From positions 1 through 60,579 of the forward strand of contig CANRKU010000005.1 in NCBI GenBank assembly GCA_947631295.1: a stretch of 60,579 bases of DNA, read 5' to 3'. The stretch comes from an uncultured Bacilli bacterium. GTDB taxonomy: Bacteria > Bacillota_I > Bacilli_A > RF39 > UBA660. The position numbers were made by a program, and so were the translations under genes. Shown piece by piece: positions 2,494 to 4,836 of this stretch (position 1 is the stretch's first letter; each line of letters begins with the position of its first letter). Under the pieces are notes generated by a model, which saw only the letters and a list, made by a program, of their open reading frames with translations, ran no database searches and had not been told where the DNA came from.

Positions 2494-2845
2494 TGGTGGA
2501 GCTGAGGAGAATCGAACTCCTGTCCAAAACTAGATCTTCAAGAATATCTACAAGTTTAGTTAACTACACAATCTCGTTATATCAAAAACTAGTTAACGAA
2601 TGTTGATATAACCAGTCTATAAAATTCATTACTACTATAGACATCATAGTAATATAACCTGCTAAAATCGAGCCTCTAAGAAAATCCACAGGTAAGATTT
2701 TTATAGAAGCGCTACGCTATATGCTTTATTAAGCAGCGTAAGCCATTGAATAATTGTTTCCAGTTATATTTAACTGATGCATTTTAAGATTGCCATCTAC
2801 TTGCCATTCCTGTTCCACTAATCCTGTCGAAACCAAAGCAGCCCC
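2494..2845 (-). ncRNA. ssrA: tmRNA; tag peptide (A)GNNYSMAYAA at 2729..2761
   Basis: 5' GGGGCTG..TTCGACAGG and 3' GGTTCGA-type T arm ending CAGCTCCACCA; ATAACT resume context; tag ends YAA-stop; lies downstream of smpB. Confidence 0.97.
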
Positions 2846-2920
2846 ATATGTGTCGTAATTATAACATAATTACATCTACTTTTCAATGGATAAAATTACC
2901 ATAATGTATTATGAAATATC

Positions 2921-2949
2921 TTGTACTAAGAACAAATGTTTGATATAAT
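2921..2949 (+). promoter_or_regulatory. SigA-type promoter for the small hydrophobic peptide transcript
   Basis: TTGTAC-N17-TATAAT with extended TG. Confidence 0.7.
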
Positions 2950-3020
2950 GCTATTGGATACATTTGAAATATATCAGATGTTTTTCCTTTCGATTATCAG
3001 AAGATAAGTGGTGGTTCATT

Positions 3021-3098
3021 ATGACAAAAAGAGAAACATCTCTATTTATTATAATTCTACTATTATTCTTTATAGTAATCACCTTACTATTTAAATAA
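3021..3098 (+). CDS. 25-aa hydrophobic peptide MTKRETSLFIIILLLFFIVITLLFK; candidate type I toxin
   Basis: Translated by hand (below the ORF-track cutoff). GTGGTGG RBS-like sequence, one TM helix, upstream promoter, convergent antisense RNA. Confidence 0.65.
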   Translation: MTKRETSLFIIILLLFFIVITLLFK

Positions 3099-3099
3099 T

Positions 3100-3210
3100 A
3101 AAAACATCTGATTTCAACAATCGTTGATTTCAGATGCAATCCATAAGGGATAACATCTGATTCGCACAATCAAATGTATCCTTTTTTATTTTATGCAAGT
3201 TTCCTTGACG
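3100..3210 (-). ncRNA. Candidate antisense (antitoxin) RNA of ~110 nt
   Basis: Promoter TTGATA(3244-3239)-N17-TATGAT(3221-3216) with TG; ends in hairpin catctgaaatcaacgattgttgaaatcagatg plus U-tract. Confidence 0.55.
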
Positions 3211-3266
3211 CATTCATCATAACATAAAAACGTGCTTTTATCAAGCTGTTTTGCTTAAAATTACCA

Positions 3267-3707
3267 TCAATAAATATTTTTCTGTGCTTTAGCAACCTGT
3301 CTTTTAATATCTTGTTCCTTCATACTTTCACGTTTATCAAAATTATGTTTTCCTTTGCATAATCCTAATAATATTTTTGCTTTATTCTTTACAAAATAAA
3401 CTTTTAATGGAATAAGAGTATAACCCTCCAATTTAATTTTATCATTTAGTTTACGAATCTCTGTTTTATGTAAAAGAAGTTTTCTAGTCCGAGTTTCCTC
3501 ATGATTAAAGATATTACCTTCTTTATAATGGCTAATAAACATATTTAAAAGAAATACTTCTCCCTTTCTAACAATACCATAACTATCCTTAATATTTGCT
3601 TTCCCTGCTCTGATAGATTTAATTTCGGTACCCGTTAACACAATTCCACATTCGTATTCTTCCTCAATAAAATAATCATGCCTAGCTACTCTATTCAATA
3701 TTTCCAT
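3267..3707 (-). CDS. smpB: SsrA-binding protein SmpB (likely ATG start at 3707)
   Basis: GIVLTGTEIKSIR, RTRKLLLHK, GKHNFDKRE motifs. Confidence 0.98.
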   Translation of the reverse strand: MEILNRVARHDYFIEEEYECGIVLTGTEIKSIRAGKANIKDSYGIVRKGEVFLLNMFISHYKEGNIFNHEETRTRKLLLHKTEIRKLNDKIKLEGYTLIPLKVYFVKNKAKILLGLCKGKHNFDKRESMKEQDIKRQVAKAQKNIY

Positions 3708-4836
3708 TACTATCACTCTTTCCTATTCTGCTATCTCCATGAACTACAATATCCATATATTTTTGATAATAAGAATTATAATTAGGTAAAATTTCCTCAG
3801 TCAATTGATGAAAAGGATAAACCTTATAATTTCCACGATATCCTTTTTGATAATCACTATAGGTATATGTTAACTCACTATTAATATTTTGTAAAGAAAC
3901 ATCTCCTGTTTTTATATCTTTCACAACATCTAAACTAACCATTAAACCAATTAATTTCTCCAATCGATCCTGACCAGATAAAAAATTACCTAAAGAATAA
4001 ATAACCAAAGTATCATCAATAAATTCAATAGGCTGTACCACATGAGGATGATGTCCAATAATAATATCTACACCCAAACTAGCTAAATAATTAGCTATTT
4101 CTCTTTGTGTAGAATCAGGGGTATAGGTGTATTCCTCTCCAAAATGCATAGATACTAAAAGTAAATCTACTTGATTTCTAACTTTTTCAATATCCTGCCT
4201 TACTATCTCTTCATCATAACGATTTAATAAATAGGTTTTTCCATCTGGGATACGGAGTCCATTAGTCCAATAAGTATAGGATAAAAGTGCATATGTAATA
4301 CCATTTTTCTCTTTTATGATAATTTGATTTCTATCTTCATCAGAAGCATAAGAACCTGCTGTATAAACATCTTTATTTTCCCAATAATGAATAGAATTTA
4401 AAATAGCTGATTCCCCTCTATCCAAAGTATGATTATTAGCTAAAGATACTAAATTAAATCCAGCATCTAAAAAAGCATCACCTACTTCGTAAGGAGAATT
4501 AAATCTTGGATAAGAAGAAAGCCCTAATTCTACCCCTCCTAAAATAGATTCTTGATTATAAAAAGCTAAATCATCAGATGAAATAATAGGTTTTACTTTT
4601 TCTAACATAGGTTTAAAATTATAACCATTCTCTGTTTTAGCATCCATATATACAGATTCATGAATTAAACCATCTCCTACCATAATAAGAGATAACTTTT
4701 TTTCTGTTTCCATCACACTTTCCGCATTTTCATCTTTATGACTAGTTTCTTTATTAGAATAATTAGAAAATATGAAAAAAAACAAAAAAAGAGTAATAAG
4801 AACAATAAACGAATTCCTAAATACTACTTTTTTCAT
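3691..4836 (-). CDS. CapA/PGA_cap family metallophosphoesterase, membrane-anchored
   Basis: N-terminal TM; VGD, NQES, LANNHTLD, HFGEEY, GHHPHV, YSLGNF motifs. Confidence 0.9.
   Translation of the reverse strand: MKKVVFRNSFIVLITLFLFFFIFSNYSNKETSHKDENAESVMETEKKLSLIMVGDGLIHESVYMDAKTENGYNFKPMLEKVKPIISSDDLAFYNQESILGGVELGLSSYPRFNSPYEVGDAFLDAGFNLVSLANNHTLDRGESAILNSIHYWENKDVYTAGSYASDEDRNQIIIKEKNGITYALLSYTYWTNGLRIPDGKTYLLNRYDEEIVRQDIEKVRNQVDLLLVSMHFGEEYTYTPDSTQREIANYLASLGVDIIIGHHPHVVQPIEFIDDTLVIYSLGNFLSGQDRLEKLIGLMVSLDVVKDIKTGDVSLQNINSELTYTYSDYQKGYRGNYKVYPFHQLTEEILPNYNSYYQKYMDIVVHGDSRIGKSDSNGNIE

Follow-up and report, generated by a model that had tools for sequence, protein, structure and literature searches.

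The locus

The window analysed here, a 60,579-nucleotide stretch of DNA from an uncultured Bacilli bacterium of the GTDB order RF39, family UBA660, is contig C5 of a 1.1-Mb genome. In this window ssrA and smpB, both on the minus strand, flank an insert of 365 bp, which contains an entire cassette comprising a predicted mRNA with a small open reading frame (ORF) and a convergent antisense unit. All the strings quoted for this region in a first-pass annotation are present in the window sequence, each where it had been placed, and the reading of the locus given there is supported, except that it omitted the LexA box, the sense terminator, the genome's second copy and the weakened ribosome site. 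The features are as follows (SD, Shine-Dalgarno).

2494-2845, minus strand: ssrA
2891..2902, no strand: 12-bp direct repeat TAAAATTACCAT, left copy, bordering the insert (repeated at 3256-3267)
2903..3267, plus strand: insert with the entire cassette, 365 bp
2921..2949, plus strand: predicted sigma-A promoter, -35 TTGTAC (2921-2926), 17-nt spacer, extended -10 TGnTATAAT (2941-2949)
2930..2941, no strand: predicted LexA (SOS) box GAACAAATGTTT, lying in the promoter spacer and equal to the genome's recA box in reverse complement
2956..3187, plus strand: predicted mRNA of ~232 nt (fold z -8.6), its ends placed from the -10 spacing and the U-tract
2956..2967, plus strand: segment a, GGATACATTTGA, 5' strand of the end-to-end helix P1, pairing with TCAAATGTATCC at 3170-3181
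2973..2991, plus strand: segments b (2973-2980, switch strand, pairing as b:b' or b:h5) and c (2984-2991, anti-SD) of the 5' UTR
3006..3015, plus strand: SD region, weakened by a 7-nt gap relative to its own group in the alignment
3021..3098, plus strand: ORF for the 25-aa peptide MTKRETSLFIIILLLFFIVITLLFK, with a basic N-terminus and a single hydrophobic helix (from sequence and pN/pS)
3077..3085, plus strand: ORF-internal anti-SD AATCACCTT, paired with the SD in the MFE fold
3145..3187, plus strand: 3' UTR with c' (3145-3150), b' (3153-3161) and a' (3170-3181)
3148-3181, plus strand: sense terminator hairpin b':a' (local fold -8.7 kcal/mol), followed by a U-tract at 3182-3187
3100..3136, minus strand: antisense terminator from folds, with a hairpin at 3105-3136, whose arms are h5 and h3 on the sense strand, and a U-run at 3100-3104
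3100..3209, minus strand: predicted antisense RNA of ~110 nt with a 5' hairpin CAAG-GAAA-CTTG (3196-3207), from family conservation
3216..3244, minus strand: predicted convergent promoter, -35 TTGATA, extended -10 TG-n-TATGAT, from the promoter scan and conservation
3256..3267, no strand: right copy of the 12-bp direct repeat TAAAATTACCAT, abutting the smpB stop codon (from sequence)
3267-3716, minus strand: smpB

The distance between smpB and ssrA is 425 bp in the window as against 60-61 bp in the closest relatives (G004, G019 and G027), and in close relatives the gap between the two genes holds one related copy only of the 12-bp repeat. In 24 congeneric genomes, with 25 ssrA loci among them, no cassette separates smpB from ssrA, and a cassette lies beside ssrA in one of 24 other genomes, at the ssrA 3' end. 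Judged by this comparison, the smpB-ssrA position is a recent insertion and not the home site of the cassette family. The ends of the 365-bp insert carry no terminal inverted repeats. Target-site duplication as a general trait of the family was considered and rejected, the longest word shared by the two flanks being distributed in 100 copies as in the control; such long shared words as occur among these copies stem from tandem arrays. Deletions between cassette-internal repeats are seen in three other loci (L125, L127 and L160), and a further one (L041) is without SD and ORF.

A dispersed family of cassettes

The same genome carries a second copy, 83% identical, on contig C9, and a profile search found no third. 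With BLAST, 28 of 36 genomes of the bacterial family, one of uncultured gut Bacilli, were matched, for the most part in the promoter and the final 70 bp, the middle being different, and three short matches fell outside this family. A 23-nt motif from the 3' end is found in 142 of the 299 genomes of the family and in 68 of its 127 genera, from 0 to 15 times per genome, as compared with 3 matches of a control in all 301 genomes. Scattered copies of the cassette in these gut bacteria number in the hundreds. In other Bacilli families 3 of 223 genomes have one match of the 3' motif with 1 mismatch; the two of these that were inspected are chance matches and no cassettes. Searches of collections of viral contigs, phages and plasmids gave no match. 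The titles of the records that share the motif name uncultured Bacilli, Tenericutes or Mollicutes MAGs (for example Candidatus Ventrenecus stercoripullorum), and the few with other labels are taken for mislabelled bins. A literature search found no published description of the family; T1TAdb, the supplementary tables of PMC2887945 and the microbiome catalogues of small ORFs and structured RNAs could list members.

A scan of GTDB with a 24-nt 3' motif gave at least 133 matches, of which 11 near contig ends were dropped, leaving 122 motif-anchored loci for a test that is independent of the claimed features. Among the matches listed, the end-to-end helix is present in 99 of these 122 loci, and the helix together with a hydrophobic ORF with SD in 88 of the 122. 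Combined with 49 copies from the BLAST set, they yield at least 128 distinct complete copies, delimited by means of the a:a' pairing and the U-tract after the sense 3' end, and falling into six sequence groups with 6 copies unassigned. What is kept across the 128 copies is the pairing of the 5' with the 3' end, the alternative pairing, the single-helix ORF, the convergent promoter and its terminator.

The neighbours differ from copy to copy, and include rpsO, rpsL, ychF, spoIVA and scpB as well as accessory genes. The 72 flanking proteins scanned, from 82 listed, are a mixture of housekeeping and accessory functions with one transposase, one Fic protein and no integrase. A link of the cassette to ssrA, or to mobile or defence islands, was rejected in view of these mixed flanking genes and of the single other genome out of 24 with a cassette beside ssrA. 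Tandem arrays of three to four cassettes occur, and in one of them (L270) two different cores stand behind the same promoter.

Architecture and co-variation of the mRNA

Folding of the RNA had been suggested as a check in the first-pass annotation, and the stretch 2955-3192 folds at -76 kcal/mol with a z of -8.6, none of 200 shuffles being as good. Predicted mRNAs in the family measure 204-250 nt. The window copy contains ATCAGATGTTTTTCC at 2973-2987, complementary to GGATAACATCTGAT at 3148-3161, and, more generally, a, h5 and b' are one kind of segment, each of which can pair with the complementary kind represented by b, h3 and a'. The local fold, with a span limit of 70 nt, amounts to -61 kcal/mol and is made up of a hairpin at the 5' end and of the antisense and sense terminators, while the global fold consists of a:a', b:b' and c:c'. 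In folding of an RNA ending at 3112, b pairs with h5. Segment c pairs with c' in the full fold and, in intact relatives, is predicted to pair with the SD. The sense terminator is the 3' strand of the long-range helices themselves.

The complementarity of the two ends, and the alternative partner AAAAACATCTGAT at 3100-3112, were both proposed at the outset from the window copy alone, and both recur in the family. Cognate pairing beats partners from other groups for a:a' in 127 of 128 copies (partly by construction), for b:b' in 126, for b:h5 and b':a' in 122 each and for h3:b' in 111, with median duplex energies, cognate and other-group respectively, of -14.5 and -7.1 kcal/mol for a:a', -21.6 and -10.2 for b:b', -12.2 and -4.1 for b:h5 and -9.5 and -4.9 for b':a'. 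The a:b 5' hairpin is weakly supported, with the cognate partner better in 55 of 128 copies only. An anchored 8-bp core could be followed in 118 of the 128 copies, after dropping the 6 unassigned and 4 without the core pattern, and 898 of its 944 cells are paired for b:b' and 873 of 944 for b:h5. The full core pairs with its cognate partner at a frequency of 0.66 as against 0.11 with other groups for b:b', and of 0.58 against 0.04 for b:h5, a co-variation that lies between a handful of groups and was taken without a tree; the exchanges between groups are C-G/T-A, A-T/G-C and G-C/A-T.

On 40 copies from the mixed groups B-D, aligned with MAFFT, RNAalifold gave no shared structure. For group A, represented by 23 of its 24 copies, the structure was recovered, with a compensatory change in 4 of 65 pairs only. 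The U-tract follows the sense 3' end in 128 of 128 copies, a feature which partly delimits the copies. In Rfam the insert has no family match down to E 5 except one chance match, and no antitoxin RNA is among the matches; 6S RNA (RF00013), named in the first-pass annotation as a possible confusion, is likewise without a match in the insert.

The peptide

The predicted peptides are 20-38 aa long, 24-30 aa in 123 of the 128 copies, and have at least two K or R among their first six residues in 127 of 128. The best 17-aa hydropathy has a median over the 128 copies of 3.5, and the centre of the peptide is uncharged in 76 of them. With pN/pS at 0.23 in group A and at 0.19-0.50 over six length classes, the ORF is, by this measure, under purifying selection, and the single-transmembrane peptide of 25 aa first read from the window is a conserved one. 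No match below E 0.01 was obtained for 41 peptides in Pfam, NCBIfam and PHROGs, and the best profile match, of 3 members to HokA at E 0.017, is at chance level for hydrophobic peptides. The PxxxG(C) motif of Fst and Ldr is absent from the peptide alignment. The first-pass annotation had not recognised the peptide family, and no family of these three collections fits it.

The antisense unit and the decay of broken copies

Simple scans list 10 promoter-like sites, as compared with 9.5 by chance, and 0 terminator-like sites, so that promoters and terminators within the window alone are not beyond chance and become convincing only through family conservation. The convergent promoter that had been proposed at 3244-3216 is among the sites listed by the scan, and what makes it convincing is the -10, kept in 126 of 128 copies. 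Similarly, the proposed antisense terminator over the 3' UTR is borne out by an A-run before the hairpin in 121 of 128 copies, the hairpin having a median of -12 kcal/mol. The antisense strand at 3085-3210 folds with a z of -4.2 against shuffles. The 5' hairpin pattern occurs in 125 of 128 copies, with the stem variants GAAG/CTTC and GAGT/ACTC, and the predicted antisense RNAs are 107-117 nt long (median 111 nt), the unit ending near the stop codon. No part of the cassette is better conserved across the groups than the antisense promoter with the 5' hairpin, and the longest perfect match between antisense RNA and 3' UTR is 15 nt within groups and 7 nt between them.

Broken copies decay unequally from the two ends. 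Among the matches listed, the 5' end is missing from 22 of 122 3'-anchored ones, the majority of which retain the antisense terminator, whereas 3 of 58 5'-anchored ones are without the 3' unit (65 matches, less 6 near contig ends and 1 chance match); the Fisher p is 0.02, to be read with the reservation that kin are not independent, that the patterns differ for each end and that the 5' patterns favour groups A and B. The three 5'-anchored copies without the 3' unit comprise one without the ORF, one with a decayed SD and one intact (L325), and the last is a counter-example, with promoter, SD and ORF intact and the antisense unit missing.

The data from RNA runs are assembled contigs, and the run query included ssrA and returned mostly tmRNA-bearing runs. 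One of seven runs (X1) covers the cassette broadly, its contigs continuing into promoter DNA on both sides. The X1 contig ends at 2955 and 3187 were considered as transcript ends and rejected, the first having 29 extra letters from another copy's promoter and other contigs passing 3229. As the X1 contigs include promoter DNA, they do not demonstrate transcripts. Five runs (X2, X5, X7, X14 and X6) do not cover the cassette, an absence which proves nothing, and X3, probably DNA, holds one piece.

The sense promoter and a predicted LexA box

The consensus promoter claimed for the sense strand is consensus in part: the extended -10 is perfect, but the -35, TTGTAC, agrees at 3 of 6 positions, and the promoter as a whole is absent from the list of the promoter scan. 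Among the matches listed, 92 of the 99 motif-anchored copies that have the end-to-end helix show the -10 at the same distance.

The predicted box in the spacer fits the Firmicutes LexA consensus as it appears in the relevant passage of PMC2248561. The lexA gene of the same genome has two such boxes, and in congeneric genomes the motif is found upstream of lexA in 27 of 27 and in control stretches inside the gene in 0 of 27. Genes for LexA, RecA and RNase III are present in the genome. In the cassette family the box occurs in 45 of 128 sense promoters, in 43 of these 45 at -26 to -28 and with a variable centre; of 105 control windows taken upstream, and of the 128 antisense promoters, 0 have it. 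It is found in 25 of 79 motif-anchored copies (among the matches listed) and in 27 of 59 5'-anchored copies; it is common in groups A and B (19 of 24 in A) and rare in C, with 3 of 23 copies, and in D, with 4 of 33. Both copies of the window's genome have it. Since the box is found in 45 of 128 copies only, SOS control is not the core of the family.

Predicted translation control

In all predicted states the SD is paired, either with c in the 5' UTR or with the ORF anti-SD, and, because it stays paired in the full-length fold, no clearly open active form was found. The anti-SD duplex of the window copy, at -6.6 kcal/mol, is the weakest of the 24 group-A copies, 22 of which are at -12 to -13. 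With its SD region lacking 7 nt, and its SD the weakest in group A, the window copy is probably attenuated. Set against synonymous recodings, the ORF anti-SD is the stronger in 108 of 128 copies, with a median z of -0.8, the difference being slight in group A and reversed in the 3 group-F copies, and c:SD pairing hardly discriminates between groups (-10.6 as against -9.6).

Bound antisense RNA was mimicked by holding the 3' UTR unpaired in folding. Of 49 copies, 38 then have an SD that costs more energy to open and 2 an SD that costs less, the median opening cost over the 49 rising from 6.2 to 8.5 kcal/mol. In equilibrium folding of 7 of the 128 copies, no 3'-trimmed form that keeps the ORF is much more open, the gain being at most 2 kcal/mol. 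Activation by 5' processing is not predicted, except by near-complete removal of the anti-SD.

Relation to known type I systems

Because type I systems are difficult to detect, few lineages are known to have them. In the description of the class that PMC8594479 gives, an mRNA of 150-400 nt encodes a protein of 20-60 aa, and the predicted cassette RNA of 204-250 nt and ORF of 20-38 aa fit these sizes. The antisense gene of the class, 60-200 nt, is matched by a unit of 107-117 nt, as a gene by sequence, and the sequestration of the SD in cis by anti-SD elements is matched in the predicted folds.

The closest likeness in layout is to bsrG/SR4, in which, according to the passages on structure in PMC3834814, the 5' and 3' parts of the mRNA form a helix P1, and the binding of SR4 lengthens the SD stem from 4 to 8 bp and promotes decay by RNase III. 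The first-pass annotation had rightly cited bsrG/SR4 for convergent 3' overlap, but had treated the 5'-3' helix as a separate precedent, while the same passages of PMC3834814 give bsrG/SR4 both. The cassette shares with it, and with bsrE/SR5, txpA/RatA and sprG/sprF, the convergent antisense RNA over the 3' end; with bsrG/SR4 it further shares the long 5'-3' helix of the mRNA, the short hydrophobic peptide and an SD that is partly paired when free and more deeply in the presence of antisense (for bsrG as in the PMC3834814 passages; here predicted in 38 of 49 copies). It differs in a peptide unrelated by profile and no Rfam antitoxin match, in the size of its RNAs (mRNA ~230 and antisense ~110 nt, as against 294 and 180), and in having no separate terminator stem after P1, the U-tract following P1 directly and the terminator being the b':a' fold. 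It differs also in its three related partner-swapping stems, in the LexA box in a third of its promoters and in its copies being dispersed over chromosomes, with none found in the phage and plasmid collections.

The passages of PMC6562991 and PMC8309996 on SOS control of type I toxins describe it for symE, tisB and dinQ of E. coli, and name no Gram-positive case. As in tisB/IstR-1, dinQ/AgrB and symE/SymR (same passages), the box, here a predicted one, overlaps the promoter of the toxin gene, here a putative one; the antitoxin promoter is without a box and the peptide is a single helix of 25-30 aa. In contrast to these systems, the cassette box is of the Gram-positive type (GAAC-N4-GTTY), the 5' UTR is short, the antisense RNA is encoded in cis, convergently, and covers the 3' UTR rather than the 5' UTR, no activation by 5' processing is predicted save by near-complete loss of the anti-SD, and the peptides have no profile match to TisB or DinQ.

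With aapA/IsoA of Helicobacter and hok/Sok the cassette has in common end-to-end pairing, many chromosomal copies and hairpins that sequester the SD, both in the 5' UTR and within the ORF (the last according to PMC6733600); it differs in that the antisense RNA covers the 3' UTR rather than the start of translation, that 3' trimming is predicted to give no much more open form (7 copies) and that no leader ORF was seen. With Fst/RNA II (par), Ibs/Sib and Ldr/Rdl it shares convergent genes, direct repeats in 5' UTR and antisense, and tandem as well as dispersed copies with their own specificity, as far as the relevant parts of PMC4147584 and PMC2887945 describe them. Yet the 41 peptides match no toxin model for Fst, Ibs or Ldr in Pfam or NCBIfam and are without the PxxxG(C) that a passage of PMC8309996 gives for Fst/Ldr, and, unlike in the Fst/RNA II group, each cassette RNA has its own terminator and the overlap is ~90 nt. 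In its working the cassette would resemble bsrG/SR4, a third of the copies having a tisB-like promoter in addition, and by sequence it is a member of neither family. A literature search turned up no LexA-controlled type I toxin that has the Gram-positive convergent layout.

Proposed explanation and alternatives

We consider it probable that the window cassette is a chromosomal type I toxin-antitoxin system of an undescribed family, in which a predicted LexA-repressed mRNA would encode a likely toxic membrane peptide and be silenced by the antisense RNA. The toxin-antitoxin-like locus suggested in the first reading is backed by family conservation, co-variation, coding constraint and the decay of broken copies. 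During transcription the ribosome site would be covered twice, by the 5'-UTR anti-SD (c) and by the ORF-internal anti-SD, and strand b is predicted to be parked on a or h5, so that b' would be free to form the terminator with a'. The finished RNA would refold to a rod of a:a', b:b' and c:c', predicted to be ~15 kcal/mol more stable, and since this rod would hide both ends and pull c off the SD, the full-length RNA is the predicted, weakly translatable form. If bsrG/SR4 is a guide, the 110-nt antisense RNA would pair with the 3' UTR, upon which c would return to the SD and the duplex would become a substrate of RNase III. If tisB and dinQ are, DNA damage would, in copies with a box, raise the mRNA over the antisense RNA, which comes from a promoter free of the box, and the peptide would slow or kill the cell through the membrane. 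The sequence groups may then be insulated toxin-antitoxin pairs, which would allow many copies to coexist.

A more ambitious version, to which we give tentative and distinctly lesser credence, has the cassettes as a LexA-gated Gram-positive type I toxin family with a common promoter-and-antisense frame, at least six swapped and insulated mRNA cores, a post-termination translation switch and a role in DNA-damage dormancy or suicide. The three related stems would act successively as guard at the 5' end, as antisense terminator and as sense terminator before re-pairing into the rod, switching translation on only after termination.

With the same RNA control, the peptide might instead be a non-lethal membrane regulator, for example an SOS division brake resembling SidA, SosA or YneA, with the antisense RNA sharpening the timing. 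The box in 45 of 128 copies would suit such a role, as would the small membrane proteins that SOS division inhibitors are in the parts of the literature covered, although the cassette shares with SidA, SosA and YneA only the LexA box and one helix. An uncharged peptide centre in 76 of 128 copies is also unlike the amphipathic pore former TisB as a passage of PMC8309996 has it. Two thirds of the copies are, however, without the box, presence is patchy at 0-15 per genome, the genome has a 47-aa hydrophobic ORF divergent from lexA, in the usual place of a brake, and the double sequestration of the SD and the antisense-only remnants fit a harmful product, for which reasons we regard the regulator as unlikely.

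Less likely again, and in our estimate improbable, is that the minus-strand unit is the main product, acting as a small RNA in trans or through interference by convergent transcription, with the mRNA duplex secondary. It would account for the strong conservation of the antisense promoter and 5' hairpin across groups and for the survival of antisense halves alone, and a terminator arm complementary to b makes trans pairing possible, by a direct-repeat logic like that of Fst/RNA II in the passages of PMC4147584. Against this, the antisense body diverges with its own mRNA group, as is expected of a cis partner and not of a shared target, and the ORF is under selection. That the cassette is a MITE-like or selfish structured repeat without toxic function, its ORF and promoters riding along, scarcely merits belief: the recent 365-bp insertion with its 12-bp direct repeat, the many unrelated neighbours and the tandem arrays recall such elements, but the insert ends have no terminal inverted repeats, the flanking direct repeats are not general (100 copies like the control), pN/pS is well below 1, and promoters, operators and terminators are conserved on both strands.

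The cassettes form a large and compact family with natural variation, and their 128 copies with co-varying stems would provide ready-made controls for the co-transcriptional folding of toxin mRNAs and for the specificity of paralogous antisense RNAs. Provided that the peptide is toxic, uncultured gut Bacilli with small genomes have many brakes triggered by stress, and these may, speculatively, bear on dormancy and on resistance to culture. Should the LexA-gated reading be true, up to 15 copies per 1-Mb genome would amount to a DNA-damage-triggered dormancy or suicide switch. The B. subtilis LexA consensus is close to the cassette box, and the 365-bp cassette is small enough to be tested whole there.

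Further observations

Divergent from lexA, and sharing the LexA boxes of the lexA region, lies the 47-aa ORF (L200:1833-1976, G000:C1), with a hydrophobic N-terminal half, in the position where SosA/YneA-type division inhibitors sit. The 6S gene of the genome is at G000:C1:44960-45146 (L336), ~0.7 kb past the lexA 3' end on the opposite strand. A strong LexA-like box at G000:C1:66388 has no ORF of at least 60 aa within 220 bp downstream.

In the window, beyond the ssrA 3' end, are a C39-like peptidase gene (1099-1716) and a 146-aa gene without a Pfam family (1901-2341), in a region that varies among relatives. Upstream of the 146-aa gene, at 2370-2410, stands the motif GCAAGTGTGTTTTCTAAATTG, which is also found just upstream of 15 of the 128 cassettes and beside ssrA in L214, and may mark a promoter or recombination module that accessory genes have in common. 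In L207 (G023:C36) a group-A cassette lies 43 bp off the ssrA 3' end, on the side opposite to that of the window copy.

At two loci (L324 and L325) the sequence breaks inside the antisense terminator hairpin at apparent insertion-sequence ends. The antisense-promoter end, with the palindrome AAAACG..CGTTTT, occurs alone after unrelated genes in four (L026, L044, L062 and L035). A WDGH-domain gene (PF25311) adjoins the cassette in three genomes (L042, L060 and L068), and a full-length spoIVA stands beside it in small-genome gut Bacilli (L027 and L029). At L285:1501-1860 the cassette promoter and 5' UTR with SD are joined to an unrelated ORF with CxxC motifs, a possible capture of the regulatory front end.
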